DNA of 53,627 bases from Candidatus Doudnabacteria bacterium (lineage in GTDB: Bacteria; Patescibacteriota; Doudnabacteria; UBA920). The stretch is from NCBI GenBank assembly GCA_963788395.1, contig CAWBGV010000024.1, positions 1-53,627 on the forward strand, in the 5' to 3' direction. A model generated the notes under the pieces. That model saw only the letters and a list, made by a program, of their open reading frames with translations, was not told the origin of the DNA and made no database searches. The position numbers and the translations under genes are program-made. Positions 11,169 to 50,941 of this stretch are shown one piece after another. Position 1 is the first letter of the stretch, and each line of letters starts with the position of its first letter.

Positions 11169-13051
11169 TTATTTTACTTCTTTAAATTCCGCATCTACCG
11201 GACCACTACTGGGGCCGGGATTATTGCCTGGTTGCGGGCCGGTTTGTCCCGACTCAGGTTGGCTTGCCGCTGGGCCTTATCACTGGTCTCATACATAGCC
11301 GCGCCTACTTTTTGGATAGCAGCGGAAAGTTCGTCGGTCGCTTTTTTAATTGCATCCGCATCGTCTTTATCTTTTATATCTTTTAAGGCTTTAATTTTTT
11401 CCTCAACCGCGGTCTTGTCTTCTGGTTTAATTTTATCGCTCGCGTCTTTTAACGTCTTTTCGGAAATACCAATCAGAGTATCGGCCTGGTTGCGCATATC
11501 CACAGTTTCTTTGCGCTTGCGATCTTCTTCGGCGTGGGCCTCGGCTTCTTTTTTCATCCGTTCGATTTCGTCTTTACTGAGGTTGGATGAACCCTGAATG
11601 GTAATATGGCTTTCTTTGTTGGTGGCCTTGTCTTTAGCTTTGACGCTTAAAATTCCGTTGGCATCGATATCAAAGGTCACTTCAATCTGGGGAACGCCGC
11701 GCGGCGCCGGAGGGATGCCGTCTAAATATAAACTTCCCGAGAGATTTGTTGTCTTTGGCAAATTCGCGCTCGCCCTGCAGCACGTGGACTTCCACCGAAG
11801 TCTGGTTGTCGGCAAAAGTAGAAAATGTTTGGCTTTTAGAAGTCGGCACGCGTCGTATTGCGTTCGATCATGGGCGTCCGCACGCCGCCGGCAGTTTCAA
11901 TCCCCAAAGTCAACGGTGTGACATCGAGCAATAAAATTTCTTTGCCTTGCACGTCCCCGCCCAAAATGCCGGCCTGGATGGCCGCGCCCTTGGCTACGGC
12001 TTCCATCGGGTCAATGCCGCCTTCCACCTGCTTGCCAATATACTCTTCCACAAACTTTTTAACCGCCGGCATGCGGGTCGGGCCGCCGATTAAAATTATT
12101 TTATCTATTTGCTGCGGAGTCAGCTTGGCGTCGGAAATAGCTTGCTCCACCGGATGGCGCATGCTTTCAACAATCGGCTTTATAAGCTCTTCCAGTTTAG
12201 CGCGGGTAATCTTCATTTGCAGATGCTTGGGTCCGTTGGCGTCGGCCGTAATAAAAGGCAGGTTGATATCGGTTTCCAAAGTAGTGGAAAGTTCAATTTT
12301 GGCTTTTTCCGCGGCTTCGCGCACGCGGTTGATGGCCATTTTATCCTGATTAAGATCCATATTGTTTTCCTTTTTAAAGGTATCAACAATATAATCAATT
12401 AAAGCTTTGTCCATATCTTTACCGCCCAGCTGGGTATCGCCGGTAGTGGATTTGACTTCAAACGTGGCTTGGTTATCGACTTCGCTAAAATCCATGATGG
12501 TCACGTCCGAGCGTTCCGCCGCCCAAATCAAACACTAATATTTTTTGGTCTTTTGAGGTGCTTTTATCGAGCCCATAAGCAAAGGCTGCCGCGGTCGGCT
12601 CGTTAATAACGCGCACAACTTCCAGTCCGGCAATTTCGCCGGCGTTCTTGGTGGCCTGGCTCTGGGCATCGTCAAAATAGGCCGGGACAGTAATCACCGC
12701 TTTAGCTACCGGCGCCCCTAAAAAGGTTTCCGCGTCTTTCTTGATTTTTTGTAAGATAAAAGCGCTGATTTGTTCCGGTGAATATTCTTTACCGTTAATG
12801 GTGTAGCGAAAGTTGGTGCCCATTTTGCGCTTGGCTTCGTAAACAGTCCCTTCCGGATTGGTCACCGCCTGCCGGCGCGCCGGCTCCCCTACCAACAGTT
12901 GCCCCTCTTTGGTAAAAGCCACGTACGACGGAAAAGCCTTACCGCCTAAAGAAGCGCCTTCAGCCGCCGGAATAATCACCGGCTTGCCGCCTTCCATAAC
13001 CGCCGCGGCGCTGTTAGATGTTCCTAAATCGATCCCTATGATTTTTGACAT
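11169..13051 (-). CDS. dnaK: Chaperone DnaK, several apparent indel errors
   Basis: [49 protein letters not shown] across consecutive frames; ends AEFKEVK*. Confidence 0.97.
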
Positions 13052-18768: not shown

Positions 18769-19783
18769 ACATCGGAGTAATTATTGATATGGCCACAAAA
18801 CCGACTATGCCCCCCATTAAGACCATAAGCACCGGTTCAATCAGGCTGGATAAATTTTTAGTCAGTTCGGTTAATTCGTTTTCAAAATTGCCGGCTAAAT
18901 ATAAGAAGCAGTCCCCCAGATAGCCGGTCGTCTCCCACCCCAACTACCTGGGAGACCATGGCGGCCAGGCGGCCGGATGGACTTGCAAGTATTCCTCAAT
19001 ACTCCCGCCGCTTTGGACAAATGCGGTCAGACCCACTATGTGTTCTTTATAAACTCCATTTTCCAAAGACCGCGCCGTGGCGGCTAAAGCCTGGTCTATG
19101 GCCATACCGCCCTGCAAGAGTAACCCCAAAGTTCTGCAGGTATTGGCCAAGTAGTAACAACTCAGTAGTTGCCCTGCCACCGGCAACCGCAAAATAAAAC
19201 GCTGGATAAACCTTTTGTACGCTGCCAGCCGGCGCAAGAACAACATACCGGTTGTGGCCAAAGCTGCTGCTGCTAGCAAAATCCCCCAATCATGCAGGCA
19301 GGCATTACTGACAACTAAAAGCAAACGGGTTGTAACCGGCAAAGGTACGTTCATACCAATAAAAATAGGCAGAACTTTTGGGAAGACTACGGTCACCAGG
19401 GCGGCGACTAAACCCAAGGTCGCAACCATAATTAAAATTGGATAAAATAGCGCGCCTAAAATTTTTCGCCGCAGTGATTGCTTTTTTTGCATTTCTTCGG
19501 CTAAAAAGTGCAGGCTCTGGGTTAAGATTCCCCCCTGTTCCCCTATGGCCAGCAAACTGATGGTAAATTCTCCAAATGTTGCCCGAAATTTTTGCAGCGC
19601 AGCAGAAAGATAGCGGCCATTGGAAACATCGGCAATCACCTGATCAAGCATGTTACGGGCAGATTTGTTTTTTATTTGCCTGCGTACCAATTGCAAACTA
19701 TCCAGCAGCGGGACGCCGGCTTTCATTAAAAATTCCATCCGCTTAATGAACAAAATTTGTTCTTTTGAAGATAAATATTTCAT
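18740..19783 (-). CDS. pilC: Type IV pilus platform protein (PilC/GspF family), frameshift near 18945
   Basis: AGVPLLDSL, GEQGG, ALFYP, GETTG, SSLIEP. Confidence 0.9.
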
Positions 19784-19814
19784 GGTTTTATAATCCTCTG
19801 GTTATTTTTAATTT

Positions 19815-21032
19815 TTATGCCTGCAGTAATTTTAAGATTTCCGCCAATGAGGTTTTACCTGCCGCGGCTTTACGCAGCCCGTCGGCTTCCATACTGACCA
19901 TGCCTTCTGCGGCGGCGAGCTGAGATAGCTCCGCGGCAGATGCTCCGGCTAAAATAGCCTGCCTCATAACGGGGCTGATGCACAAAATTTCCTGTACGGC
20001 AATGCGCCCCAAGAACCCGCTGTGATGGCAGGCCTTGCAGCCTCCGCTTTGGCCGAATTTTTTATGAGTGGCGGCCACCGAAAGCGGCAGCAGCTCGGCC
20101 AACGCTTCCCGCTCCCGCGAACCCAGTTCCTGCCACTGCCTACAGCGCGGGCAGAGCTTCCGGACTAAACGCTGGCTGATTATTAAATGAATAGTGGCGG
20201 CTAAAATGTACGGTTTAATGCCCATGTCCAACAAACGGGGTAAGGTAGTTGCGGCGTTGCTGGTGTGCAGGGTAGAAATTAATAAGTGTCCGGTTAAGGC
20301 CGCCTGCATGGCGATGGTCGCGGTTTCGGTATCGCGAATTTCGCCGACCATAATAATGTTGGGATCCTGCCGTAAAATACTGCGCAAGCCCTGAGCAAAG
20401 TTTAAGCCGCTCCGGGCGTTGGCTTGGACCTGCTGGATTCCGGCCAGGGAATATTCAATTGGATCTTCTACTGTAATAATTGAAACTTCGGGAGTATTAA
20501 GCATTTTCAATAAGGTATAAATGGTGGTGGTTTTACCGCTGCCGGTTGGCCCGGTGACTAAAATTGCGCCGTGGGAACGCCGCAGCGCGACCAAAATTTT
20601 TTGCTGATTAACCGAAGAAAAACCCAATTGTTCCAAACTCTGGTACTCCAAGGAATCGGCAAGTAAGCGCAAGACGGCGTTTTCGCCGTAAAAAGTGGGC
20701 ATAATCGAAACGCGAACATCTACCGCGCCGTGATCCGGCGAATCGAAACGAAAGCGGCCATCCTGCGGGGCTTGGTGTTCATCGGTCCGCAAACCGGAAA
20801 GAATTTTAATCCGGGTAATTATTTCCTGCTGTAATTCTTTGGATAAATCCCCTGCCGCGTATAGCAAGCCATCAATACGCAATCTAATCACCAATCCACT
20901 GCGGGTCGGGTGGAAATGGATATCGGAAGCGTTCAGCTTAATGGCGTGGGCCAAAACTATGTTAATTAATTCTGTAACTGGCGGCAGAGTCCTGTTGGTT
21001 GAAAACAAGCTGAGTTCAAAAGTTTCCGACAT
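19815..21032 (-). CDS. PilB/GspE-family assembly ATPase (no long N-terminal domain)
   Basis: ASDIH, GPTGSGKTT, TVEDPIE, LRQDPNIIMVGEIRD, TGHL, tetracysteine motif. Confidence 0.93.
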   Translation of the reverse strand: MSETFELSLFSTNRTLPPVTELINIVLAHAIKLNASDIHFHPTRSGLVIRLRIDGLLYAAGDLSKELQQEIITRIKILSGLRTDEHQAPQDGRFRFDSPDHGAVDVRVSIMPTFYGENAVLRLLADSLEYQSLEQLGFSSVNQQKILVALRRSHGAILVTGPTGSGKTTTIYTLLKMLNTPEVSIITVEDPIEYSLAGIQQVQANARSGLNFAQGLRSILRQDPNIIMVGEIRDTETATIAMQAALTGHLLISTLHTSNAATTLPRLLDMGIKPYILAATIHLIISQRLVRKLCPRCRQWQELGSREREALAELLPLSVAATHKKFGQSGGCKACHHSGFLGRIAVQEILCISPVMRQAILAGASAAELSQLAAAEGMVSMEADGLRKAAAGKTSLAEILKLLQA

Positions 21033-21160: not shown

Positions 21161-21753
21161 TTATTTTAAATCGGCAAAAACTAAATATCGTTCTAAAGCT
21201 GTACCTACGGGATACGAGGTCTGGAGGGTGAGCATTTTTTGGTTTAGGTTTTGCTGGAGATACTGAGTGTTAGATGGAGATACTATTTGGGTGCCGGTGA
21301 CGGTATAGGTAAATACGGTTCCGGCGTCGTTGGAAATTATGATTTGATCGCCCAAAGCAATTTTGGGCAGCAGGGCAAAAATGGTTTTGTAGTGGCCATG
21401 GGACCAAATGTAGTCTGAACTGTGGCCAAAAATATAACAATTCCCAAGCTGGCCCGGTAGGCCGTGCCCGGATAGTGCACAACCCCGCTGAGCAAATCTG
21501 CCTGCCAGACGCTTTCGGTTGTGGCTGTGGCGTATATAATAGGCGCGGAAATCCCCAGTGACGGCACAAACAGCATGTTCGGCGCACCCCGAGCGGCCAC
21601 AGCTGTGGTAGTTGTAATTTTGAGATGACGTGTAAAATCGTACCGAATATTTTGCCACATGTAGTTCCAGTTAAGCAATGTAAAAAGAACGATAAAAATA
21701 CCCGCGGCTAACAAGAAGAAAAACACTATTTTTTTGAACAACAAAATACTCAT
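21161..21753 (-). CDS. Sortase-family protein, frameshifted; Ser at the catalytic Cys position
   Basis: N-terminal TM, GVVHYPGT, FGHSS, TLQTSYP, downstream R. Confidence 0.85.
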
Positions 21754-21826: not shown

Positions 21827-24461
21827 TTATTTTCTCTTGCGCAGCGCGCCATAAGCTCCGGCCAAACTCAGCATAGCCACACTCAACACCTCTTCCCCCG
21901 GAATCCCAGTCCGCGGCAACCGAGTAGTAGAAGCCCCCAAAACCTCACCGGTGGGCGTAGGCGCCGGGGTTGGAGATAGGAACGAGGCTGGCACATGGGT
22001 AGTAGCTCCCAAAACTTCTGGTACTCCACCAGAGCCTGAACCTGAAGAGCCTCCGGTACCACAATTACCTAAACAAAATCCACCGCCTCCGCCATTTGAG
22101 CCCGAAAAACCACCGCCTCCGCCATTGCTTGCACTCTGGGTGCCCGCGTCAATTTCGGCGCCTTCAACTTCGGGAGACCCATGTGATACCGGACGGAAAT
22201 AATAATCAGTGTCAAATCCAAACCTGTTCATGTCACCAAATGTTTCAATTACCTTGGTGCTATCCTCAACTGTAGAAAATGCATATCCATAGTTAGGAGG
22301 CGAAGCGGATAATACAGAAGGGTGGGAAACGGTATCATAAATTACGCGACTAGTTGCCAAATGACTAGTTTGCCAGGTTATTGTCACGGAATGCAAACCA
22401 ACTCCGGTCACCTCTTCATCAAATATTTCCAGATCATCACCAGAGCCTGTGTTTACCGTGACTGTGGAAGTAGCAGTATTGTTATCTGTATCTATATCGG
22501 TCTGGTCAGCGGAAACAGTGGCAACATTAGTGATCGTATTATCATCAGGATTGGCATTAACAGTGGCGGCGATCGTTGTTGTCGCAGAATCACCATGCGG
22601 CAAATCACCTATAGTCCAAAGATTAGTGCTTGTTGCGTAACTGCCTTGGGTTGAAGAAGAAGAGTAGAACGTTAAAACCGAAGGTAATACATCATTTGCA
22701 TCAACAGTTGTTGCGTCATCTGGACCATTATTAGTGACCACCAATGTATAGTTTATTGTATCACCAACATTTACTGCAGTTTTATCGGCGACCTTGGTTA
22801 TAGTTAAATCCGCGGAACCATTTCCTTCATCGCCTCCCTCCCCATTATCACCGCCGCTTGGTGCAGTATTGGTTATGGTGCAAGTTACTACGTCTCCCGG
22901 GTTTATAGTCCCGCTGCAACCTGGGGAAAGGGTTTTGGTATAACCTAAACTATCAGCTTCGTCTACACTATAGGAGCCAGCAAATAAAGTAACTATTTTT
23001 CCATCGGAATCACCCGGAAGGGTAGGCTGAGATACGTGAGTACCGGTAATATCTACCGTAAAATCAGAAGGAACGTTAGTGCCACCAACAACGTTAGTAA
23101 CAACTTCGAGCTGAGGAGAAATATCGTTAAAGGTAATTGTACAAGTTTTACTGTCGTTATCTACTAAAGTTCCAGCGCAATCGGCGGATTTAAAGAAAGT
23201 GTAATCCACAAACGGATATGGCGGAGAAATGCTGTAGTCTCCGGGGTCAAATTTGACTCCGGTGCCAGAACCTGAACCCGGAAATGAAGCCAGTGAAGGA
23301 TTGGTGCCTGTAGGATCGATGGTAAAATCGGAAGGTCCTTTGGTGCCATTATCATCGTTTTGGACAACTACAACTACGTTAACTTGAGCGCTGGCAGGAG
23401 GAGGAGTTGGTTCAAAATGGCTAGAAGTGGAGATGGCGGAATAGGAGTAGGTGTAGGAACAAATGTGTTCGTTATATTACAAGTAATAGCACTAGTGTCG
23501 GCAACGGTACCGCTACAGCCAGAATCAAGGTTAATGTTGTAATTAGAAGAGTTAGAAGTGGTCGATTCGGTTACCGCATAATTATCACCAACATTGACAT
23601 TGTATTGTTGACGTATCGGCGGCTGCACCGTTGAAAACAGTAGTGGTACTATCGGTCACCAAAAGGTTAAAATCCGAAGAAACCGCGAGCCGCCATTGTT
23701 TGTAAGGTTAACTGTTAGTGGAGCGACAGGGATAGGCTGTTCATTAGTAATAGTACAAGTTACATCTTCGCCTATATTCAATCTACCGGAACAACCGGCT
23801 GAGAGACTTTCAATATAGCCTTCGCTATGAGTCGCTGACATTATAAGGCCCGGCGCTAATTGATACTTGAGTACCATCTTCGCTCCTGGAAAGGTTCATT
23901 CGTAATACCTGCGCCACTAACATTCATTTCAAATTCGCTAGCAACTTTATCTCCCCCATGATTAATAACATGCTTAATTACTGTTAGCGTGGGCTGTTCA
24001 TCTTGAGCGATCATTGTGCAGGTTACTGACTGTCCCTTGGTAATACTACCGGAGCAATTAATACCATTGGATGGTGCAAAAAAATAACCTGGGATGTGAG
24101 TTACTGAAACTGAATAAGGTCCTGGATCTAAGGTAACAGTAACACCCGAACTGCTTCCATTAAAATTACTTTGCGACACATCCGTACCGGTAACAGTAGT
24201 CAAAAAATTCGATGACTGATCGGTACCACCATAATTATTGTTCACAATAGTGACAACATTTAAAGTAGCACTACCGCTAGCTGCTGCTGTGTGGGTAGGA
24301 AACTGACTGATTGAAAAAGCACATATTGCTAAAAGTAAGAACGAACTTACAACAGCTTTAATTTTCCAATTCATAGAAAACCTTCTGCGCTGTACCGGTT
24401 GAAATTCTTTAATATCCCGAACAGGATGTATTTTAAACTTTACTTTTCTGGCCATAAACAT
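21827..24461 (-). CDS. Large surface protein with repeated Ig-like domains, DUF11-like and Fn3-like domains and LPRTG sorting signal; several frameshifts
   Basis: Repeats ending C.G.I..G..VTCTITN; ADLTITK..YTLVVTNNGP; ITWQT..ATSRVIY; EVLGA motifs; LPRTG, TM, RKRK. Confidence 0.8.
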
Positions 24462-24534: not shown

Positions 24535-25129
24535 CTAAGCGATGCTTCGCCTCCGCCGAAACATCAGCCCCATACCAAACAGGCCGCTGCCGATCAAACC
24601 CGCAGTTGCCACTTCTGGTGTACTTGTTACCGGCGCAGTTGGCACTTCGGTGGTGCCAATGTTTGCTTGAGCAGTTAAGTCAGACGTCCTTCTGTCGGTG
24701 GCCGTGTAGTTTTGGAGCGTTAGGGTAGAACTGTCCGGGCTCTGAATAACGAAAAGGCCCAAATCAACCCCCGTGGATCCGCCGTCAACCTGGGAACCTC
24801 CCCGAGTAAATGTCATGTTCTGTATAGTCGGACTATCCACCGGCGCCGTTGTTGGCGGCATCAGCCCCAGCAATGCTGAGGTGGCTGTCCAACCAGCAGG
24901 TATGACGTCTCCCGAAACAACGCAGAGGGCGCAATCGTAAATCGTTGAAATAGGAGCCGCTGACGATCGAACTTCCTTGATCAAGAAACGCGTCGTAAGT
25001 CACTGTACTACCCAAAAAACCCGTTTCTGTGATAAAAATGGTGGCTGATTTGCCTTGCGGAGAAAATGCTTCCGCAAACACAAAAGCAAGCAGGCAAGCA
25101 ACCCATGGGGTTGCCCTTTTGTAGCTCAT
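24535..25129 (-). CDS. PEP-CTERM-type surface protein 1, one frameshift
   Basis: Signal peptide; C-terminus TPEVATAGLIGSGLFGMGLMFRRRR; GGAGG RBS. Confidence 0.8.
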
Positions 25130-25174
25130 TGATCCTCCATGTAAACCGAGTCTAGGCCTAACCGAAACCCCCGG

Positions 25175-25270
25175 AAAACAAAAAGCACCCCAAATTACGA
25201 AGTGCTATTAAGTAGGCGAAGTTGCGCCTAGGTCTAATCTAACTATAAGGATTTAATAAAAATAAGTCAA
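25175..25270 (-). promoter_or_regulatory. Sigma70 promoter plus leader terminator-like hairpin
   Basis: TTGACT-N17-TATAGT; AGCACTTC-N7-GGGGTGCT-TTTTG. Confidence 0.7.
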
Positions 25271-25397
25271 GAAAAAAGTAAAGAAATGTTAAAAGCGTTT
25301 ATGTTGGTTAGTTACTCAAAAATTCTTTAATAATATGAGCTTTTTTAATCTTAAAATTCAGACTAAATAAAAAAGACAGGGAATAACGGAATCCCTG

Positions 25398-26480
25398 TCA
25401 TACCGAAGCTGCCATCTTAGCTTGTGTGTTCACCTTCCCTTTATTTGTTAAAGAAAGAGGCTTTTCAACACAAAGGTATACAGCCGCCCCAGTGGTGATC
25501 GTCATGGCCACTCCAATAAAAAACAGCGCGAAGAATTGAAGTGAATTGGTGGCATTATGAAAACTAACTAACCACCTTAGACCGTTCAGCACCAATCCGT
25601 GGGATCATAATACGAATAACTTATATTACCCATACTCCTTAAAGCCGCCGTTGAAAATGTTTTGTGCAGAATTCCTTTGAAGTTAAGCGCATACAATAAT
25701 CCCAAAAATATCATCAAGTTAAGTGGAAAGCTCATGGAAATACCAGTCCAGGCTCCGCCATAGATGAAGGCAAAAGCGACCAGGAGCATTATAGACAGAT
25801 ACTCTCCCCACTTATTCATGTAGCACTTTAATGCAGTCTGTTTGGTTACCTCGAACACAATAATCCCCGTGACAAAGGTAATAAGGCGAGGATACCTCAG
25901 CAAGTGATACTGGGCCAAAACGTTAGCACCGTAAACAAACTTAACCAAAAATACAGCCTTTGCTTACTCGACAGGCGACACATGCCCAGGAATGAAAACC
26001 CAAGCGGGATAGTGAGGTAAAAGAACAACTCATAACTTAATGACCAAGACACTGTTATTATGGGCGTTATGTTAAATATGCCGGGGAGCATACAAACATT
26101 CTCAGCCACATAAATAACCGCTTGGTATATTGAGTGAGGTAACTTTGAGTACTGTGGTATCACCACAGATATCCCGACATAAATTGCGAGAACAACCAGA
26201 AATGTTGGATATAGCCGATGGATGCGTCGTTTTAAGTACTGCCTATAATTCTGACGCTTTTCTAACACTATTCCATAAAGCAAAAATCCACTGATGCCGA
26301 AAAATATATCTACCCCCGTATTTCCTAACACCCTGCACTCTGGAAGAATCGAAACCATAAATTACCAGATCCCGAGTCACCAAACATTACATTAAAATGA
26401 ACCATGAAGACTGCTAGGGCAGCGAAACCTCGCAGGCCTTCTAAGGACACTAGGCGAGCTTGATCTTTCTCTTGTGACAA
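25398..26480 (-). CDS. Acyltransferase family 3 (OafA-like), frameshifted
   Basis: LEGLRGFAALAVFMVH, GVDIFFGISGF, RRIHRLYP, WSLSYELFFY, GNISYSYY. Confidence 0.9.
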
Positions 26481-26635
26481 TTCACTCCTCCTGCTAAAAA
26501 CTTGCGAATTTAACACCCAACAACTGTCTTAAAATGATACTCTATCCTAACAAAAAAATTTGGAATAATCAAAAAATAAAAAATATCGGGCGGTTCGCAA
26601 GTGCGAAACCGCCCGTCAAGGTTGTTAATCTTGGG

Positions 26636-27279
26636 TTAGTGCTTCGAAGTTTTCCGGCGCCTAAATAACGAGACCGCCAGCAGCCCTCCGCCGACTAACA
26701 ATGTGGTGGTGGGTTCCGGTATAGTCCCCGGCACTGGCACTGGACCAACTGTACTATCGGTCGTTCCAGCATCGGATCCTATGTCCTTCGTGGCCTGACT
26801 GGTAAACGTACCATTCGTAAGCACATCGGATAAGGAGTCAACCTGGAAACCGGAAAAGGTTACACCGTTCGCGCCGCCCTGCACGACTGCGCCGGTGTAA
26901 TCAAATGTAACGTTCATCACAATGGGACTATCGAAGGAAGTCCCGTTGATTGTGCCGGGAGTAGTCCCGACCAATTGCTCAGTGTATCCCCAATCTGTGG
27001 CCATCCCGCTGACGCCGGCAAAGTTACCGATGTCGTAGATGGTAAAAAAGGTACCAGCTGGATTGCACTGCACAGGGCCCCCAGGTCCAGGACACGTAGC
27101 GCCATTAGTGGCTACCGGTCTGCCCGCTCGTCCTGCGTTAGAAACGCAGAATAGTTATAACCCCATTCATTCGGGGCGATTTGGGTTGCGCTGTTCTCGA
27201 TGACGATGATACTCGCCGCCGCTGACATTGAAAAAGCAAGCACTCCGAAAAGCACTGCCGCGAGAAACTTCTTACACAT
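26636..27279 (-). CDS. PEP-CTERM surface protein 2, frameshifted
   Basis: MCKKFLAAVLFGVLAFSMSAAAS signal; C-terminus IPEPTTTLLVGGGLLAVSLFRRRK; AGGAGG RBS. Confidence 0.88.
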
Positions 27280-27335
27280 TCATTTCCTCCTAAGGTTGGG
27301 TAATCAAGGCATTACGGAAAGAATCTCCGTAACAC

Positions 27336-27413
27336 AAAAAGCATCCCTATATGGAATGCCTAGCGTTTTTCCTGAACCGGTTTAACTATAAGGAATAATT
27401 TAAAATAAGTCAA
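27336..27413 (-). promoter_or_regulatory. Sigma70 promoter plus leader terminator-like hairpin, homologous to 25175-25270
   Basis: TTGACT-N17-TATAGT; GCATTCC-N5-GGGATGC-TTTTTG. Confidence 0.7.
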
Positions 27414-27595: not shown

Positions 27596-28876
27596 CTAAA
27601 CACCAACTCTTGTAAATCTCTTTACGCCGTCGCACACTGCGACAGTCGCAAGAAACAACAATAGGCCTTCTATAGGGAAACGGTAGCGGGGAGAAACCTG
27701 GATAACATAGTAGACGAGGGGGTAGATGACTATGGCAGTACCCAATAGCAACCCAACTATATATTTTCTTTTGAGCAGTAGTACAACACTTCCTCCAATT
27801 CCTAAGATACTGATGCTTCCTTCAAAAATTGTTTGCCAAATCCGTCGCATGTGAGGAAACCAAAAAAGAAAAATCCGATTGGCAGACAACCGCAAGAAAG
27901 TTTTTGGGTGGGAACGAATCCACTGCAGAGCCTCCTGTTTTTTTTGCAAGTTGTAGACCACTTCACCCCATTTATGAACCTTATCTCTCTCTGCTGAACT
28001 AAAGAAGGGGTGAAATAATTTAAAAGCATCAAGTCCAATGTTCTTTTCAAGGTCAGCCGTCATGAAATTGTTATTAGAAACCATCAACTCCAACCCGAAG
28101 TTTGTCCGAGTCACAATTAAACTTCTAAAAACAATGTAATTTCTTATTGTCCATGGTGTTAATACTAAAATTGTGGCTAACGAGGCTCCTGCAAGGAACT
28201 TCAAAAAGTGACGCCTCTCTTCTTGATAGAGCATGAGTCCCAATCCAAACCAGACGAACAATACTGGAAAGGTAGCAGCATTCAGCAAGCACGTTAAGCC
28301 GATTAGTATTCCTGCCAAAAAACCATTACGCATTGAGAATAGTTTCCTGGTCCAAAAATAACTAATGAGACAGCAAAGGAGAATTAACGCTAAGAATGTA
28401 AATGGAGCGTCAAAAACACCGAAGGCTTGAAACCAGTAGTTGACTGGCATCAAAGCACCTACACAACCCGCTATTAAACCTGTGCTTACAGGCAACCTAC
28501 AACTCAGCGCAAGAACGGGCAATAAAGCATAGCCACCAGCGCTTGCGGCACAGGCACTCCAAGAAACAAAAAAAGAAGCCAGGTGCCCAGTACCAAACAA
28601 TTTAATCAACATTGCTATAAAAAATGGGTGCAGAGGCATACAATGACCAGTAGGTCCGACATGTGGACCATATGCATCAGCGTACGTGCCATAGCTTGCT
28701 AGTGACAATGCTACATTGGTTGGTTCTACCATTACTAAGTCTCCAATCCCTTTTATAAACAGGAGTGCGAGTCTGATGGAAAAACCTGCCAAAAAAAGTA
28801 GAACAACGCCCCAAATAACTAGGGAATACTGGTTGCGCACATCCAGTACAACAAACTTGCTCGTCTCTTTGTACAC
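27596..28876 (-). CDS. Polytopic GT-C-like (ArnT/PMT-related) glycosyltransferase
   Basis: Many TM helices; PWTIRNY, TNFGLEL, RYRFPIE motifs; own TTGACT-N17-TATGAT promoter. Confidence 0.7.
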   Translation of the reverse strand: MYKETSKFVVLDVRNQYSLVIWGVVLLFLAGFSIRLALLFIKGIGDLVMVEPTNVALSLASYGTYADAYGPHVGPTGHCMPLHPFFIAMLIKLFGTGHLASFFVSWSACAASAGGYALLPVLALSCRLPVSTGLIAGCVGALMPVNYWFQAFGVFDAPFTFLALILLCCLISYFWTRKLFSMRNGFLAGILIGLTCLLNAATFPVLFVWFGLGLMLYQEERRHFLKFLAGASLATILVLTPWTIRNYIVFRSLIVTRTNFGLELMVSNNNFMTADLEKNIGLDAFKLFHPFFSSAERDKVHKWGEVVYNLQKKQEALQWIRSHPKTFLRLSANRIFLFWFPHMRRIWQTIFEGSISILGIGGSVVLLLKRKYIVGLLLGTAIVIYPLVYYVIQVSPRYRFPIEGLLLFLATVAVCDGVKRFTRVGV

Positions 28877-37646: not shown

Positions 37647-37758
37647 TCCTTAACAATTGTGAAGAGGATTTTTTGCCGCGGTAGGTCCCGTTCGGCACAC
37701 CCATAACCACTGACTGCTGCCACAGTTAAAACCCTTGACCAAAACATGGGAGAACTGT

Positions 37759-39370
37759 ATGAAGTTTGCAACATTCTTCGGAGGGGCAGCACTGCTGGCC
37801 CTACTAACCCTGACCCTCAGCAACCACAACGCAGTTGGACAAACTCTTTTGTCCAACCCGGGAGGTGATACTAACCCGCCGGTAGACCCCGGCGATCCTT
37901 ACGATGGAGTCGCTCCATCGCCACAAGCCTATCAGATCCCCACACCGAACATGTACGTAGCCGCCGGTTCCGACTCAGCGTATGCCGGAATCAACGGAGC
38001 GCTCAACTGGTGTATTGTGGGCGGTTCCAATCCGTACGTTTCCATACCCATCGGAAGGGAAAAAATGCCGGTTTGGCAGCCTCCCAACGGTGGCGTAGTG
38101 GCTTATCCTGGAAATCCGGAATTAGTCACCGCCCAGCTGGATGTAATGTTTTACGCTTTAGGCGTCGGCCAAGAGTTGGCCATACGGATCAACTCCAACG
38201 AGGTGTTTGAACTAACCTCTACGCAGAACGAAAGCTGGGGACAGTCTGACCACACAAATCCCCGCCAGCATTCTTCACTGGGCCCAAAATTTTGGAGGGA
38301 CTTTAACTCCCGGATACAACTCGGTGGAGATTGTCAACTATACGGAAGGGGCCTGTACTTCGATTGCTTATGCGAGCATTCGCGTAGGCTCGCCCCAACC
38401 GGTGTTCGCCATCCACGGTCTCGGCGGCAGCCCGGCCAGTTTTACTGGTCTGGCTAGTTCGTTCATTCCTTATGGCAATCCGGTCTACCTGCTTAACCTC
38501 CAGGATCAGACTATCTCCGCCCGAGGGGCAGACATGCGTCAGCAGTTAGCCAATTTTTCGGCCCAAACCGGAATTTGGAACTCGCATTTCGTTTGTCACT
38601 CCGCCGGCTGCTTGACCTATGAGTACGCCTTTGGACAAGCCTCGGCTCAACCACTACCTTGTCCCATTTCGGTCAGCGCCATCGCCGCGCCATTTCTAGG
38701 CAGTCCGCTCGCGGATTACTACTTTGATTCGGCTGGCGCCACTGACAAGACCAACTTGGGGAAACTTGGCCCGCTCAACACCACAATTTTGGACGCCGTC
38801 CTGGCCTACCTGGGCAATCAACCCGGTATTATCCAGGGCTTGCGCCCATCGGTCAGGCAAGGCGTTACTGCTTCGCTTTGGCCAAGTCTGCCGCACCAGC
38901 GGTGGATGAACGTTCCGGGAAACATTCCCATCCCCTACTTTGCCTACTCGGGCGATGCGAACTGGGGACAAGGAAGCGTTAATATCACCTCGCAACAAAC
39001 CGCGGGGTTCCCGCTTATCACCCCCTCCTTGGGTGCAGCGTTGTACAATTTTGTGGGCCAAACCGCCGACACCAAGGCCATTGTCCAACAAGTTTGCGGT
39101 TGGACTACGGTCGCGGGCACCGCGGTTGACCTCTGTCAGAATGTGAAGATAGTAATTCCCATAACTCGTCCGGCCGGCCAGTTTCTGACCAACGATTTTA
39201 TTGTTGATGAGAACAGCGCCAACCCTGCCGGCTACCAGCAGCACCGCGGTATTCACGCGCACCACTTAGACATAGTCGGTGTGTCGCAAAACCAGGTCGC
39301 CGCCAACATTCATGCCAACGACACCGTGTTGTTGGCCATTTGGGTTGTAACCCGTCCCATAGGAAACTAG
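37759..39370 (+). CDS. Secreted alpha/beta hydrolase (lipase/PGAP1-like), frameshift near 38250-38330
   Basis: Signal peptide; IHGLGG, VCHSAG nucleophile elbow, APFLGSPLAD, NDFIVDENSA, late His. Confidence 0.8.
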
Positions 39371-39378
39371 GAGACACC

Positions 39379-39993
39379 ATGAAATTGATTACGGTACTGT
39401 GGATCCTTCTCGCGATAGTTTCAATGGGATGCGGACAAACGACTCCCAACGGCACGACTGTCGCAACTATTCGTCACGACCCTTTTATTTGGGGGCACGA
39501 CGAAATTCAGCCACTGGTTAGTTGCTTCTTAAGGCGTAGTCGGAACAGGCTGCTGATTAACGCTTACCCCTATTCCTACGACGCCGATACAGAAAGCGAC
39601 TTTAGCGCCAAAAATTATTCAGACACGCCCGCAGTTGTTGATCTGAATACAAAAACTCTTGCCCCCGCCGCTTTAAAGGAGTGGCAGGAAGCGACTCCGC
39701 TAACGCTGATTCCGCCTGCCGGCACCTTTGCGTGGAAATGGCACGGCCATGGTCTCTCACTCGATCCTGGTCCGATACTAACACTCACTGTTGACGGTTC
39801 AAAGTATCAGGTCATTAATGTTCCAAGAGAAGTCAGCAGAGCGTTCGGCCTGGTTCGCGGCGGCGCGGCGGCCAGCGAAACTTTTGCCGCAGAAGCAAAA
39901 CTTTTCCAGGATGGGGACAGTGCAGTACTGGTCATCCCCGCAGGCCTGGATGGCGACAAACTCATGTTCGTAAAAATCGGAGGTCAAAAATGA
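39379..39993 (+). CDS. Putative lipoprotein
   Basis: MKLITVLWILLAIVSMGC lipobox-like; AGGAG RBS; directly after the lipase. Confidence 0.7.
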   Translation: MKLITVLWILLAIVSMGCGQTTPNGTTVATIRHDPFIWGHDEIQPLVSCFLRRSRNRLLINAYPYSYDADTESDFSAKNYSDTPAVVDLNTKTLAPAALKEWQEATPLTLIPPAGTFAWKWHGHGLSLDPGPILTLTVDGSKYQVINVPREVSRAFGLVRGGAAASETFAAEAKLFQDGDSAVLVIPAGLDGDKLMFVKIGGQK

Positions 39994-41093
39994 AAAACGG
40001 ACAAAAAATCTTGATAGTACTCTTGGCCAGTTCTGCCTTGTTCGGACAGGACCGGAGCGTACAATCGAGCGCAAAGTTTATCACCTCGTACACGCTGGGA
40101 TCGGGTCTCAACCAATACACTTTCCCGGTCGATACTACCCAGGGTTTCACCTTGTTCGCCTCTTCGGCTCCTGTGACCATGGAAGCCCACTTATACGGGC
40201 CCACGGGCACGGAAATCTTGCCCGTCCTAACCGGCGAACCGGCTCGGGGAAATAGCGATTACATCTGGCAAACCAGCACCAGCATTCCCGGAATTTACAC
40301 TTTAGCCGCTAACGGCAATGTGCCAGTTTTGGGAAAAAACAACGATCCCATCTACCTGTTCAACCACCTGACGTTCCAGCTCTACCTGGCCGACAGCCAA
40401 ACTCAATTGGTTGCGGTGCCCTGGCAACTGGTTGTCCCGCTGGGCGGCAAAATCTACTTCAGTTATTTTGTAGTAGATAATGACCAGCTGATGCCTATCT
40501 CCGAGTATCTACTCGGCGCGGTGTGCACCCCGGCTAATGGGAGTATGGTCGTTGCCAATGGCGCTGCCTCAAACGATCCTCAGCATATTAATTCGTTTGA
40601 ATGCGACGCCACCACCACCGGCGATTGGTACATCACGGTCTTTGCCAAGGGCCGCAACAGTGCCGGTTACAATTTTATCAGGTCAGAGAACCTGACCGTC
40701 AACGTTTCGGCCAACGTACCCAGCATCAGGCTGGGCAGCGCCGGTCCGATTCAGTCGACGTTAGGGATCAAGTCAATCCCCTACACCATGGGGATTACGA
40801 CCAGCCAGAGCAACGTCGCCACCATCCTGCTGACGCTGGCGACCAGCTCGGGAGCAACTCAAACCATCCGCAACGACCTTCAGCTCACGAACGGCGTTCA
40901 AAATCTGACCCTGCAGATTGGCGGCCTCCAGCTGTTGCCGCTACTGCAGCAGGCGACGACGAATACCAATCAGGTGGTGAGCGTATACCTAACCAGGGTT
41001 ACAATCACATATTCGGGAGACGCCTATCCGTGCCTCGATCTCCCGATGTCGCCGACTTACATAGGAGGATATACATTAAAAGAAATTCAATAA
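39990..41093 (+). CDS. Secreted beta-rich hypothetical protein
   Basis: Signal peptide ending ALFG-Q; overlaps previous stop; GGAGG RBS. Confidence 0.75.
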   Translation: MKNGQKILIVLLASSALFGQDRSVQSSAKFITSYTLGSGLNQYTFPVDTTQGFTLFASSAPVTMEAHLYGPTGTEILPVLTGEPARGNSDYIWQTSTSIPGIYTLAANGNVPVLGKNNDPIYLFNHLTFQLYLADSQTQLVAVPWQLVVPLGGKIYFSYFVVDNDQLMPISEYLLGAVCTPANGSMVVANGAASNDPQHINSFECDATTTGDWYITVFAKGRNSAGYNFIRSENLTVNVSANVPSIRLGSAGPIQSTLGIKSIPYTMGITTSQSNVATILLTLATSSGATQTIRNDLQLTNGVQNLTLQIGGLQLLPLLQQATTNTNQVVSVYLTRVTITYSGDAYPCLDLPMSPTYIGGYTLKEIQ

Positions 41094-41095
41094 GC

Positions 41096-41128
41096 AACAG
41101 GCGGAGACACTTGTCTCCGCCTGTTTTT
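41096..41128 (+). terminator. Intrinsic terminator
   Basis: AACAGGCGGAGACA-CT-TGTCTCCGCCTGTT-TTT. Confidence 0.88.
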
Positions 41129-41225
41129 ATATTATCTATAAATTAATTACTATCAACACTTTGCAGGGTCGCGTAAACCACTAAGTTATCGCTGTAGCGG
41201 CCAAGGCTTGGTATCTAAGTACGCT

Positions 41226-41519
41226 TTACATAACTTGATAGATTTCACGGTTCCCGGTCAGGTACATTTCCGTGTACCCTTTCATTTTCGCCATGGACTC
41301 CTGCATTTCCGGAGTAGGATTCTTATGGGCTTCAAACGCCGCTTCGTACTCGCTTAAATTTTCGTACTGGGATACCATAATCACCCGGTTGTACTGGCCG
41401 GTCATGTCGGTCATCACCCGGATAAAATTTTTGTCGCTGGCCATAACTTCTTTAAATAATTTGGCCAGCTTAGAGGCATTTCCCGGTTTACTGACAAAAA
41501 TATCATTGACTATAATCAT
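41226..41519 (-). CDS. NIPSNAP/dimeric alpha-beta barrel-like protein
   Basis: KPGNASKLAKLFKE, RVMTDMTG, GNREIYQ. Confidence 0.65.
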   Translation of the reverse strand: MIIVNDIFVSKPGNASKLAKLFKEVMASDKNFIRVMTDMTGQYNRVIMVSQYENLSEYEAAFEAHKNPTPEMQESMAKMKGYTEMYLTGNREIYQVM

Positions 41520-41559
41520 AATTCTCACCCCCTTTCATTTTAGCGAATCAGCTGATCAG

Positions 41560-41783
41560 CTATTGTGCTTCCGCAAATTTTTTCAGTCCATCGGCCGTAG
41601 AATTCCAGCCTTCGGCAAAATTTTCGGGCGCCAGGTCTGGATTATCCGACGGGAAAGCTTGAGTAAAGTTAAACCGTAATTCTAAACGCGTTTGGTTATC
41701 TTGTGCAAACAGTTGGTACGAAACTACCGAGTTGCCCGGCAGGCCAGCGCCGGCGGAGCGTTAATTACTCTGGTAATGGCCAA
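41560..41783 (-). pseudogene. SRPBCC/AHSA1-like remnant with internal deletion
   Basis: LAITRVINAPPALACRA followed almost directly by VVSYQLFAQDNQTRLEL...FAEGWNSTADGLKKFAE*. Confidence 0.65.
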
Positions 41784-41936
41784 GTCCCCCTTATCGAGAT
41801 TGGAAGCGTAGCGTACTTGGAAGGCATCCGAGGGCGGGACTTGGCCGTACGCACATCTCAACGAGACCGCCACCAGAAGAACAATAAAAGAGCTTGGGTG
41901 CGTAGTGTTATTGCCTCTCTGGAACAGTATCAGGAC
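41784..41936. repeat. Direct repeat copy 1 (5' part of a truncated DAFQVRYASNL gene on the minus strand)
   Basis: About 10 differences by eye from 46032-46183 over about 152 bp. Confidence 0.92.
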
Positions 41937-42208
41937 CGGCCTTGTAAGGAATACTCTTCAGATGGCGTAGCCAGAAGAAGTATATCCTGTCTTGCGATAG
42001 TCCTTTTTGAGCAGCCCCGCCAATGGGTTCGTAGGAAGTTCTCGCGAGCCGCCGACCTTAACCGTATAGCCCGATTGAGCTAGGTACCAAATAAAATCTG
42101 TTTGACGCAGCCTTTTTCTGGTGCTACGCTTAGGCCACATTAACAGAATTAATGTTGGCTGCGGGCAGCAATCGGCGCGCCCCCGCTCCGCAAAAGGAGT
42201 TCGAAAGT

Positions 42209-43159
42209 ATGAAAACTCCACTTGTCCTCGGAAGCGTCGCCCTGGTTGTTCTTCTAACCGGAAGTATTTACCTGCTTGTTGCGGCGCCTCATGGTGGCCC
42301 TCAAAGCGTGACTTCGCAGCTTACGCCAGTAACTAGTCATACTTATGAATCGCGACTAACAGGATCGGACGCTACTCCTAGCGCGACGACGACACCAGCT
42401 ATTGGAACACCTACCACAGACCCGACGTTGATCTCAATCAACACGCCGACCGCCACCGCCACCGTCACGCACTCCATTGATTGGGTTAGCATATCACCAC
42501 CGAGTATTACAGCAGGGGCTTCAAGTCCAGTGACGGTTACGGCACAGATTACAGATCCCGCTGTTATTAGGAACAGCGTCAACCTAGTCTACATGCCGCC
42601 ATCGGGGGCTCCGACTGTTATTGCGACTTTGAACGATGCCGGCGTCAATGGCGACCTGACTGCCGACGATAACATATTCTCGCTCACGACAACAACCCTG
42701 TTTTCGACTTATCGGGTTGGTACGGTTCAGCTCGCAGTATCCGCCGCATTCACTGGGACCCTCAGCCGCGCCCAGAGCACTTTCCAGTTTGGCATAGATG
42801 CTCCTGTCTCGACCGCAGGCTGGGTGCCACTTACAGACTCCCAGCGACTCTTTTCTATACAGGTACCTTCGGCATGGAATCTTCATACAACCGAGAACCC
42901 GACCGACGGCGAGGACATCAAGAGTGTTGATTTTGCGTTTCCGGACGGCACCGTAGTGTTTTCAATTTTTATTTATACTCCCGATGCTTGGGCATTGATT
43001 CAAACTGGCGGCGAACCAGCGCCCGCGCTCGTTGGGCAGACACATCAGTACATATTTGGCGAAGCTGATTCCCAGGCTGAGATACTCAATGAGTCAGTTA
43101 GCGAGACTGACATCTTCAAGGCACTGCCTCAGATTCTGGCGACGTTTCGGGCATTCTGA
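42209..43159 (+). CDS. Anchored protein, MKTP paralog 1 (choice-of-anchor X-like motif plus PsbP-like C-terminus)
   Basis: AAGGAG RBS; TM; LNDAGVNGDLTADDNIFS; FSIQVPSAW...QILATFR. Confidence 0.75.
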   Translation: MKTPLVLGSVALVVLLTGSIYLLVAAPHGGPQSVTSQLTPVTSHTYESRLTGSDATPSATTTPAIGTPTTDPTLISINTPTATATVTHSIDWVSISPPSITAGASSPVTVTAQITDPAVIRNSVNLVYMPPSGAPTVIATLNDAGVNGDLTADDNIFSLTTTTLFSTYRVGTVQLAVSAAFTGTLSRAQSTFQFGIDAPVSTAGWVPLTDSQRLFSIQVPSAWNLHTTENPTDGEDIKSVDFAFPDGTVVFSIFIYTPDAWALIQTGGEPAPALVGQTHQYIFGEADSQAEILNESVSETDIFKALPQILATFRAF

Positions 43160-43186
43160 ATCGAAGAGGGATGGGCAGGTGATATC

Positions 43187-43600
43187 ATGTGTCGCGGACT
43201 CCTTGTTTTTCTGATATTGGGTAGCGCCGGATCTTCGCCGGCCCAAACACAGTCATGTGACGCCGACGTGCATCCGGCATGCAGCAGCGCCAATCAATCT
43301 GCGGGATGTGTTCTTGATACTTTCGATAACGTCCCAGCCTATTATAACGGTTCATACAACGGAAAAATTAAGTCGTGGGCCTTATGCTCTGACGGGTGGT
43401 TGTACCAATGTCCGGAATTTGTACGCAGATTTTATCGTATTGCCGAACACCAGGAAACCTCAACCCCCGCATGGGCTGACTTGCACAAGTAGGTCGCAAA
43501 TACCTCCTTGAGCGACCTTGGACCACCGCAACCAAAATCCCAAGCCCTTCGTGTGGACTGCGGACGCGGATCTGATCTTGGGAAAAGTCGAAAGACTTTG
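43187..43600 (+). pseudogene. Secreted CHAP-like amidase, disrupted or truncated
   Basis: Signal peptide; NVPAYYNG...WLYQCPEFVRRFY (GspS-type CHAP Cys motif); 3' end approximate. Confidence 0.6.
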
Positions 43601-43681
43601 TCAACGTATTTCCAACTCAGGACACTAGCCGTGCATCTTCAATATAAGTAATCCCGGCACTAACACTTAACACACACAAAT

Positions 43682-44702
43682 ATGCAGCACACAAGTGTAA
43701 ATAGAATTATCCTGCTCTCTATGATTACTTTAATGGCCTTCGGATGCACTTCGACTCATCCGGCCTCTACCGTTCCTACTCCTTCACACCTAGCGGCGAC
43801 AAGTCAGCCTCAACCTGTTCAGTCCCAAGCTAATGTACTAGAGCCCGCGCAGAATTCGAATGATCCGTATCGCGACATTATCGATGTGGGCACTGCGGAT
43901 CAGCAGACGATACCGGGCAAATATCAGTGCGGTAAATATACCGTCACGCCGCCTATCAGCGATGAGCCGGACGACAACCGCATAGTGAATCCGCCAGCCG
44001 TGTTTCTCGAGCCCATTCATAAGTTACTGATCACGGATCTAGACAACTCACAAGAGAGTTACAGTTATGACGTAACGTTCACTTCTACATGTCAACAATT
44101 ATACTATGTGGACTTTGAAGACGCTGGCGCTACTAGCATCCATGTTGTAGATCTACGCTCGGGTGCGCGATCAGTCGTCACAATTCCGAACTCTGCACTC
44201 CCTCGCACATACCAACACGTAAAGCACACTCTTGTGTTTCTTTACGATATCGATTCTTAGTCACTTACTATTATGGTTTGATGCAGGAGAGGGGCCTAGC
44301 GGCGTTCTAAACAGTGAGTTTCAAGCAATATATGACATCGATGCTAGGACTCTGCACTTCATAGATGATACGGTCGCCGATGACCCGAGTTCTGCCTACC
44401 GCACCGATGACGGATTTGGTGACGGTATTGCGCTACTGGACGACGCGACCGACACGCTGATTCTCTTCGGAAATACTAATGGCGACGGAGACGTCACTAG
44501 CCGCACGGAAATCAATCTCAAAACCGGCGTGCAAACCACGACCGCTTTACCGCAGCCCGAGGATCCAGAGGATCCGTTGGGTTTACCGGTGCCAGCCACA
44601 TACTGTACTGTCCATAACCCCTCCGTTGGCATGAGTAAAGACGATTACACAGCGTGTCGCGATGAGTGGCTAAGCAGGCTTGTGCCGAACGAAGACAGGT
44701 AA
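43682..44702 (+). CDS. Putative acidic lipoprotein, frameshift near 44250
   Basis: LMAFGC lipobox; two overlapping frames; convergent with the CHAP gene. Confidence 0.6.
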
Positions 44703-44733
44703 TTCTCGATTCGAGGGGCACTCCCTGCCGCGC

Positions 44734-46180
44734 TCACCGATAATAACCCGTCGCGACTTTCGTAGCGCTGAATTGGGAGTGAATGCCACCTCCCGCTTTG
44801 ATCTGTTTAACGCCAGCGGCGGACGTCGTAACCATGAAAGTACTCGCAACAGTTGACGCTTGTTCTCCCCAAGCCGGTGAGGCATTCATCTCGCCAATCG
44901 TAAAACTATACGTCGTGGTGTAGGGGACACCAGGTGCCGGATTGGGCGGTACCGTCTTTGTAGTGACCGTCGAAATAATAATTGCTGTGTGCTCTTCAGT
45001 GAAATCCACAACGTCCCATTGGTTCGGAATATAGGTCGCTGTGATCGGCCCGACAGTGTAATAGGCTGGGACAGGAATGGGGCGACCCTGGGCGAGCAGT
45101 TGGTTTGCAACATACCACGTGCACTGCCCATAGCCGCGTCCATAGATCGTTTCGACTACGCCACCTGGATTCGGTAATGGCAGCGTGGCGCTGGAGCCAT
45201 CAGGTGCCGTTATGGTGACAGAAACCATAGAAGAACCACATTCTTGTGATTGAATTGAAAACAAACAGCTTGCTGCGAATGAGGGGATAAATTCTATTCG
45301 GGTATTCTTCCAGCATGTAATAGAAGACGGAGGGACGGTAATCGAGGAATTCGAAAAAGATAGACTGCCCATCGATTGACCGCATCCCTCAGGAGGACAG
45401 AATCCGGTCCCCTCCAGTATCCAGTTCGGCTTGACACTCACTCCTCCACTTGAAATTTTTGACGTACCTTTGCAAGGGCTCGACGTTTGGCAGACATCTA
45501 CGGCATAGAAAAGGTAGTATTTGCCGGGTGTTTTCGGGCCTCCTACCGCGCCGACATCCGGCTGCCCTTGCCACTGCGCGGATTGAACTAAGTTTCCCCA
45601 GTCCCAACCGCTAATGCTGGTCAACGTAATTTTTGTGTAGACACCTGAAAATGCTATCACTGCTCCTTCTGTGAGGGTCTGCGTCTGCGGCGGCGGCGTT
45701 TATAACCAGCGACAGGGTTAAACGCGACCGTATAGGTGTTTACTGGGACGGTACGTGAAACTGGAAATGGCCCTGAAGTCGGAAATCCTGGTACCGGCGG
45801 CGTCAGACTAAAAGCGGCGGTAGGGACATTACTGTTAATCGTAAGAGTCCCGGACTGCTGCACGTACACCCCATTGAAAACAATTGTTGCGTTCGCGGAC
45901 ACTGTTTGGTTTGGCTAGCAGGTACGGTGTAACCGGTAGCAACTCCGTACGAAAGTGTAGACATTGGCACAGAGCGAGCCTGAAACCGGGTTGCCTCCGA
46001 GCGCGCCAACGTTGGTGATGTTAATGAAGGCGTCACCCTTATCGAGATTGGAAGCGTAGCGAACTTGGAAGGCGTCCGAGGGCGGTACTTGGCCGTACGT
46101 ACATCTCAACGAGACCGCCACCAGAAGAGCGACAAAAGAGCTTAGGTGCGTAGTGTTATTGCCCTCTGGAACAGTATCAG
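44734..46180 (-). CDS. Secreted multidomain protein: DAFQVRYASNL N-terminus, Ig/PEGA-like repeats, C-terminal CHAP amidase; frameshifted, start approximate
   Basis: Consecutive frames 45915-46307, 45803-46036, 45657-45902, 44734-45660; GYGQCTWYV, HTAII, IGEMNA. Confidence 0.72.
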
Positions 46181-46183
46181 GAC
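46032..46183. repeat. Direct repeat copy 2
   Basis: Near-identical to 41784-41936. Confidence 0.92.
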
Positions 46184-46475
46184 TTCGGTATCCCTCAAAT
46201 CGTCCAAATGGCGTAGTCAGCGGACTTATTACCAGCGACTCGAACCATACACATCTGCAACAAACGGCAAGGTTATATCGATCTTCCCCACGCGATAGAA
46301 AGGGCACGTGAGTAGCTCACTTGAGCTATATAACCCTCTTGATCGGGGCTGCCGGAAAGGATTGACGCGGCCCAGAACAGGTGATACGCTTAGGCTACAT
46401 TAACAGCCGTAAATGTTGAGTGTGAGCAGCATCGGCGCTCCCACTTCGCAACATCGCTTTAAGGAGTTCAAGAAT

Positions 46476-47429: not shown

Positions 47430-47441
47430 CCGGGTGAGCGC

Positions 47442-47930: not shown

Positions 47931-47939
47931 CGAACCATT

Positions 47940-48295: not shown

Positions 48296-48306
48296 GGTCC
48301 TGCTCC

Positions 48307-49817
<1,511 letters not shown>

Positions 49818-50899: not shown

Positions 50900-50941
50900 G
50901 GCGCTCTCCGGTCAAGGCGTGGATGAAGCGTCAAGGCATCC

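Follow-up and report, generated by a model that had tools for sequence, protein, structure and literature searches.

PEP-CTERM-tailed paralogues in a Patescibacteria genome in which no exosortase was found

What becomes of a PEP-CTERM tail in a cell that appears to have neither an outer membrane nor an exosortase? The question is raised by two neighbouring genes, here called A and B, on contig CAWBGV010000024.1 of Candidatus Doudnabacteria bacterium (GenBank assembly GCA_963788395.1). The whole contig (C24 in our numbering; 53,627 nucleotides) is the window analysed here and is one of 41 contigs in a 1.29-Mb bin (G000) with a completeness of 76.7% and a contamination of 4.2%. An initial annotation, made from the letters of the window, took the two genes for paralogues encoding PEP-CTERM proteins in a genome of the Candidate Phyla Radiation (CPR) type. 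According to the excerpts of Haft et al. (2006; PMC1569441), PEP-CTERM proteins are found only where there is an outer membrane, and every genome that has them also encodes EpsH; here the PEP-CTERM signal is kept, yet neither Omp85 nor an exosortase was found.

The reading that we favour, with about even confidence, is that A and B are chromosomal paralogues in an island derived from Acidobacteriota, that their tails serve as uncleaved membrane anchors and that the frameshifts that interrupt them are assembly indels. The CPR assignment itself is borne out by DnaJ, whose best named relatives are from 'Patescibacteria group bacterium' (71-73% identity; Doudnabacteria 66%), and the genomes of the relatives examined below range from 0.6 to 1.8 Mb.

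Two paralogues with PEP-CTERM-like tails

Genes A and B are homologous, as annotated, and both lie on the minus strand. Over 108 aa their ectodomains share 36% identity (blastp E 3e-9), and the shared core that had been noted is present in both, in the form of the motifs Y.AFL, TIYD (within TFFTIYD) and DSP..N.TF. Both N-termini, judged by inspection only, resemble the signal peptides that had been annotated, with a basic start, a hydrophobic core and an A-x-A-like site. At the other end, gene B carries IPEP followed by a hydrophobic helix and RRRK (..GTIPEPTTT..), and gene A carries TPEV followed by a hydrophobic helix and RRRR (..TSTPEVATA..); an LPXTG-like motif before the C-terminal helix was found in neither tail. 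The annotated PE(P/V)-helix-RRR architecture is thus present in both, and the tail of gene B exceeds the curated cut-offs (TIGR02595, 23.8 against 16; PF07589, 23.1 against 20.7), but the tail of gene A falls below the cut-off of every PEP-CTERM model, with no match to TIGR02595 and 14.3 bits against a cut-off of 20 for MYXO-CTERM (TIGR03901). The annotation also had to be amended in two respects: it had crossed frames silently, neither A nor B being one open frame here, and its span of 24535-27279 contains, beyond the two PEP-CTERM genes, an unrelated Acyl_transf_3 gene.

The two proteins belong to an unnamed family of about 210-aa beta-sandwich proteins, the profile of which matches gene B at E 2.5e-68 and gene A at E 1.8e-40. 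At E<=1e-3 the family has 1716 representative clusters, a number that falls to 934 at E<=1e-10 and to 87 at E<=1e-30. It is similar to PepA (NF033554) and NF038129 in that these, too, are small (about 200-260 aa) exported PEP-CTERM proteins, and some family members score 26-37 bits against these models over stretches that reach beyond the tail, but the cut-offs (80 bits for NF033554, 65 bits for NF038129) are far from reached and A and B form a family of their own. For NF038129, the best whole-protein NCBIfam model, the C piece of gene B scores 30.2 bits, gene A 15.1 bits and full-length homologues 22-28 bits. For the closest full-length relative, AlphaFold2 gives a confident model (pLDDT 94.2) with a helix at residues 2-17 (signal), a beta-sandwich and a terminal helix. 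In the PDB, neither Foldseek (at E<=1e-3) nor a profile search of the sequences found a match. The wide VIA-align comparison placed YcnI first (Z 8.2), ahead of cohesin, carbohydrate-binding, pilin and adhesin modules (Z 6-7.5); this is the level expected of a common beta-sandwich, and the matches are to generic modules only.

Under the mechanism that we propose, A and B would be exported through Sec by means of their N-terminal signal peptides, and the beta-sandwich domain would be displayed outside the cell as a binding module, perhaps in an adhesin or matrix-binding role. The PEP-CTERM tail, a helix with an Arg cluster, would act only as a C-terminal membrane anchor without cleavage by exosortase, because neither an outer membrane nor an exosortase appears to be present.

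Table 1. Positions of the features discussed (window coordinates unless a contig or another locus is named)
Feature	Position	Strand	Description
Gene B	26636..27279	-	about 214-aa predicted exported beta-sandwich protein, 'TFFTIYD' PEP-CTERM family
Gene B pieces	N 27115-27279, C 26636-27118	-	1-nt deficit at 27113-27118
Gene A	24535..25129	-	divergent paralogue, about 198 aa, without the two-Cys loop
Gene A pieces	N 24947-25129, C 24535-24945	-	one extra base at about 24946
Gene B promoter-like block	27385..27413	-	TTGACT-N17-TATAGT
Gene A promoter-like block	25242..25270	-	TTGACT-N17-TATAGT
Acyl_transf_3 membrane protein gene	25398..26516	-	between A and B, four frame pieces
GT-C / GT39 (PMT_2)-like gene	27596..28876	-	polytopic membrane protein, 426 aa; intact, upstream of B
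LPXTG-type surface protein gene	21827..24461	-	about 878 aa, about 4-5 frameshifts, three-frame reading
Sortase gene	21161..21753	-	one frameshift, PF04203 E 6e-18
PilC (T2SSF) + PilB (T2SSE)	18944..21032	-	type IV pilus; mark conserved surface-gene locus
dnaK	11195-13051		three pieces, sole copy in genome
Ser-type sortase loci	window 21161-21753; L040:19221-19805; L041:3386-4012; 10 further		
Further PEP-CTERM-tailed ORFs in the bin	contigs C14, C22, C41		five genes in all

Candidate readers of the tail in the order

The annotation had reported that the window holds no exosortase, and this now extends to the full bin, in which PF09721 and TIGR04178 gave 0 matches (at 76.7% completeness), and to 60 relatives. 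Across the 61 genomes of the order, PF09721 matched in none and TIGR04178 in none above its cut-off, its weak matches falling in two genomes that both have no PEP-CTERM match, and no exosortase was found either in the 53 relatives of at least 90% completeness. In an even sample of the phylum, PF09721 was found in 17 of 401 Patescibacteria genomes (10 over the cut-off), none of them among the nine that are positive for PEP-CTERM. Omp85 (PF01103) was found in 0 of the 61 genomes of the order, and the same search was positive in seven diderm control genomes.

The tails themselves are not an oddity of this bin, as they had seemed. TIGR02595 exceeds its cut-off in 16 of the 61 genomes, this bin included, and in 12 of the 36 other genomes of the same family, and it gives no match in 14 control genomes; of the nine positive genomes in the phylum sample, four come from this order. 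Some of the hits in relatives come from large contigs (1.21 Mb, 274 kb and 235 kb), a finding that disfavours binning error. Of the two findings that, by the initial annotation, would together overturn its reading (an exosortase in the genome and vertical spread in the lineage), the second therefore holds for the tail type but not for the protein family of A and B, whose ectodomain was not found in the 60 relatives, where the tails alone matched; the first was not observed.

Could such tails be read by an enzyme that has so far gone unrecognised, perhaps the Ser-for-Cys sortase of the locus or a membrane protease, and thus constitute a working second sorting signal? We regard this as a serious rival, if a rather unlikely one. 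The 33 distinct PEP-tailed open reading frames (ORFs) in the loci retrieved from 16 genomes fall into 23 sequence clusters, six of which are common to several genomes (five across genera), and an exact (V/T)PEP with a Gly-rich helix is present in 31 of the 33 tails, those of the six cross-genome clusters included. However, the tails were gathered by means of the motif, so that the sample is biased and its conservation partly circular. The only two tails reached through the ectodomain are both degenerate, gene A reading PEV and an orthologue in G015, which is 53% identical to its G033 counterpart, reading PET.

Gene neighbourhoods bear on the same rival. PEP-CTERM genes lie within a few kb of a sortase and an LPXTG adhesin in this bin and in four relatives (G001, G024, G025 and G033), and in the last three of these the gene order is that of the window, with sortase, ELPRTG adhesin and PEP-CTERM gene in succession. 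Among 20 PEP-CTERM loci of relatives, eight adjoin HrcA, UvrA, PilB/PilC or sortase, and a ninth (G001:C31) contains a sortase by Pfam. PEP-CTERM genes adjoin the type IV pilus locus in several relatives, and some of those in the order occupy syntenic orthologous slots. Against this, the PEP-CTERM gene of G014 has a housekeeping context and lies far from any sortase.

Directly downstream of the pair lies the sortase substrate that had been annotated, a protein with SpaA_2 repeats (PF19403), DUF11 (PF01345) and the tail 'TRLPRTG...RKRK', together with the sortase gene. This sortase reads LTLQTSYPVG, with Ser at the position of the catalytic Cys and with His and Arg retained, and when its intact orthologue from G024 is aligned to solved sortases the Ser falls under the catalytic Cys. 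The variant (LTLQTS(Y/W)PxG) is represented by 13 genes in 12 genomes, both PEP-CTERM-positive and -negative. The local enzyme is at most a candidate for acting on A and B. Sortases are as numerous in PEP-negative as in PEP-positive genomes (2.0 and 2.1 copies), and the Ser type also occurs in five PEP-negative genomes. A sortase that co-occurs with the tails as their reader was rejected, since neither copy number nor the Ser variant tracks the presence of PEP-CTERM.

The two kinds of anchor are interchangeable. A 703-aa ELPRTG protein of G018 (L082, G018:C2, 7285-9396) bears at its N-terminus the ectodomain of a PEP-CTERM cluster, and the same ectodomain is found on PEP-CTERM proteins of G019, G036 and this bin (contig C14), so that one module is borne on two anchor types. 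An extension of these ideas, which we consider unlikely, holds that one Patescibacteria family practises exosortase-independent PEP-CTERM display through an unrecognised reader, perhaps the Ser-type sortase encoded with the pilus and adhesin genes, and that a fixed chromosomal slot is restocked again and again with PEP-CTERM ectodomains from diderm neighbours such as Bryobacterales, which would then be candidate hosts. In the literature we found no published account of PEP-CTERM in CPR/Patescibacteria or in monoderms.

Separately, a single-pass Ala/Pro/Lys-rich membrane protein with an internal VPEP is encoded beside the PEP-CTERM genes of two relatives (L040:6999-8324 and L046:3108-4109).

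Origin and integrity of the proposed island

The impression that the proteins are Acidobacteria-like was upheld. A scan with a narrower alignment (A2) located relatives at 25 loci in species-representative genomes, of which 22 are Acidobacteriota by their record labels and one each Planctomycetota, Myxococcota and Armatimonadota. The 22 are mostly Bryobacterales/Bryobacteraceae, with Pyrinomonadaceae, Terriglobia, Thermoanaerobaculia and Acidoferrales also represented. The tree has 41 rows, namely the 25 loci (L035-L037 by their matched segment only), 14 database proteins and genes A and B; the partial P0013 and P0001, which is the window's own piece, were left out. Gene B falls inside a clade of 34 rows with 100/97 support (17 Acidobacteriota, one Myxococcota, one Planctomycetota and 15 unlabelled), nearest to P0002, its best relative at 57% identity, and to a Bryobacteraceae sequence. 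Gene A forms a long branch (2.06) and is grouped with another Acidobacteriota subgroup.

The two genes also resemble each other upstream. Their promoter-like blocks are 87.5% identical over 32 nt (blastn E 1e-4) and have no third copy in the genome, in which the pattern TTGACT-N17-TATAGT occurs at four sites, two of them at A and B. A second conserved block, GGG(G/A)TGCTTTTTGT.TT.CGG...TTTC.GT.A.GCCT, sits in the leaders of about 110-130 nt (25149-25192 and 27301-27349, minus strand); it has no other copy in the genome and no match in Rfam. Compared with the 25 Acidobacteria-type loci, conservation of the upstream region is limited to chance 11-13-mers. Because the promoter and 5' untranslated blocks are common to A and B and have no further copy in the genome, the simplest history of the pair would be a single acquisition and a later duplication that brought the promoter along.

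The intact gene upstream of B points in the same direction. Its GT39-like product has best matches of 42-48% identity, two of them named Bryobacteraceae, its more distant matches carry PF13231 and its Atlas lead is Acidobacteriota / PMT_2; the gene was not found in the 60 relatives. Because this neighbour is also Bryobacteraceae-like and was not found in relatives, A, B and the GT39-like gene together look like an island of about 4.5 kb (24.5-28.9 kb) derived from Acidobacteriota. The donor would have been Bryobacterales-like, and the insertion would have taken place by the pilus and sortase genes, in a variable surface-gene region of the lineage. Gene order is shared with G001, a genome of the same genus, as far as PilB (window 19037-20978) and again from MarR (29906) onwards, which makes 21.0-29.9 kb a region that varies within the genus.

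Misassembly, a risk that the initial annotation had itself raised, would account for Acidobacteriota-type genes differently, as a segment from an Acidobacteria-like organism joined into a Patescibacteria contig. The 3' end of the contig (47.9-53.6 kb) is chimeric, six other contigs have high-GC (guanine plus cytosine) ends and three neighbouring genes have Acidobacteriota-type relatives. However, the island is flanked by Patescibacteria genes on both sides, and an artefact would require two internal misjoins between these flanks. The composition is also typical of the genome: by tetranucleotide distance, 22.5-28.5 kb ranks at the 64th-79th percentile, GC content at third codon positions in A and B is near the 80th percentile, and the GC content of the GT-C (glycosyltransferase C-type) gene is 0.43, as against 0.57-0.63 in the Acidobacteria-type loci. 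Identity to any Acidobacteria protein is only 42-57%, and relatives carry their PEP-CTERM genes within the large contigs given above. Given the native composition and the Patescibacteria flanks, a misjoin at the island is unlikely, and we consider the artefact as an overall explanation very improbable.

A further proposal of the initial annotation was that the proteins might serve in host mimicry, with processing by, or dependence on, the exosortase of an Acidobacteria host. The donor phylum fits, and CPR bacteria are generally episymbiotic. We know of no route, however, by which the protein of a foreign cell would reach an exosortase. An identity of 42-57% speaks for a donor that is old or unsampled and not for present-day mimicry, no data tie this genome to a particular host and the literature yielded no relevant paper linking CPR to Acidobacteria hosts. 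In the model of Haft et al. (2006; PMC1569441), as given in the excerpts, exosortase resides in the inner membrane and works on proteins inserted in that same membrane, which also speaks against the proposal, and we find it barely credible.

Are the interruptions of the two genes real? In gene A a base is inserted within 'tat ttc a acg att', and in gene B a C is missing from 'gac c(c)g gta', where homologues read DERLDPxATNG. We read these breaks as assembly indels, and think this quite probable, because the sole dnaK of the genome is split in the same way, by two single-base insertions inside the conserved motifs DLGGGT-DV and ERNTT-(I/V)P. Split genes occur along the whole contig (dnaK, sortase, LPXTG gene, acyltransferase, class II aldolase and transketolase), and the assembly is indel-prone. 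Programmed frameshifting was considered and rejected, as A and B need opposite shifts and dnaK has the same type of break.

Alternatively, A, B and much of 21-27 kb might be decaying pseudogenes of an imported island, non-functional without an exosortase. The interrupted genes include the acyltransferase (three breaks), the LPXTG gene (about 4-5) and the sortase (one) as well as A and B, the local density of frameshifts exceeds a rough average for the window, and in gene A the Cys loop and the motif's second Pro are both lost. On the other hand, dnaK, which is present only once, and the Calvin-cycle genes of foreign origin at the high-GC end of the same contig (fructose-bisphosphate aldolase, FBA, and transketolase) are broken alike. 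Moreover, the frames of A and B are clean apart from one indel each and retain all columns that are invariant in a 16-row alignment, and the promoter-like blocks of both are intact. We therefore judge this alternative to be quite unlikely.

Several observations weigh against the reading that we favour. The density of frameshifts in 21.1-27.3 kb, about 10 per 6.2 kb, is about three times the rough whole-window estimate, which leaves room for real decay of that stretch. At 76.7% completeness, an exosortase could sit in the missing part of the bin. An exact (V/T)PEP is kept in six clusters at ectodomain identities of 29-49%, and even in this tail-selected and biased sample such retention hints at selection on the motif and hence at a reader. 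The free tree does not place A and B as sisters, although a sister grouping is not rejected by the approximately unbiased test (p 0.32). Synteny of the island genes was found in none of the 25 Acidobacteria-type loci, where neither the GT-C gene nor the acyltransferase pieces nor the flanking genes had a tblastn match. Lastly, the export, topology and lack of cleavage of A and B are predictions from sequence.

Other parts of the contig may be described briefly. The 3' end (47888-53627) has a GC content of 0.65 and exceeds the 99th percentile in tetranucleotide distance. Its genes, for a RuBisCO small-chain domain, a class II FBA and a transketolase, are all frameshifted, and the contig has almost certainly been joined here to sequence of a high-GC autotroph; contigs C26, C27, C19, C31, C36 and C30 have high-GC ends of a similar kind. 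The preceding 10 kb or so (37735-47776; GC 0.51-0.55, tetranucleotide distance at the 82nd-92nd percentile) contain ORFs without a Pfam match at E<=1e-4, some of them frameshifted, and may be a mobile or lineage-specific cassette. Near the 5' end, a tyrosine recombinase (Phage_integrase, E 7e-39) at 1308-2468 is followed by NUDIX, cupin and methyltransferase genes with a GC content of 0.38-0.43. In the acyltransferase gene, the piece at 25897-26358 matches PF01757 at E 2.2e-16. An Rfam gathering scan and a tRNA scan of the window gave no match.

Known systems and significance

Genes A and B share much with the PEP-CTERM/exosortase system of diderm bacteria that produce exopolysaccharide (EpsH, XrtA). 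In both, a signal peptide, for A and B one judged by inspection only, and a small unrelated ectodomain precede a tail of (V/I)PEP, a hydrophobic helix of about 20 residues and an Arg cluster, several such genes occur per genome and the neighbours include glycan-modifying genes, here the acyltransferase and the GT39-like gene. Unlike that system, this bin and its 60 relatives yielded no exosortase or Omp85, and the organism uses sortase and LPXTG proteins. The monoderm LPXTG/sortase system is similar in its tail of motif, helix and basic cluster and is encoded at the same locus, the pair being followed at 0.1-3 kb by a sortase and an LPRTG substrate, but the motif of A and B is PEP/PEV and not LPXTG, and in the local sortase a Ser stands at the position of the catalytic Cys.

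The assembly is indel-ridden and has chimeric contig ends, which calls for caution. PEP-CTERM has hitherto been defined by strict pairing with an exosortase and an outer membrane. In this monoderm lineage about one third of the genomes carry canonical tails with neither partner, so that the tail would be either a plain anchor or the substrate of a second, unknown reader. The island adjoins type IV pilus genes, which are thought to mediate contact with hosts. As a concrete case of what looks like a multi-gene surface island passed from Acidobacteriota into CPR, it may offer a lead for host assignment.

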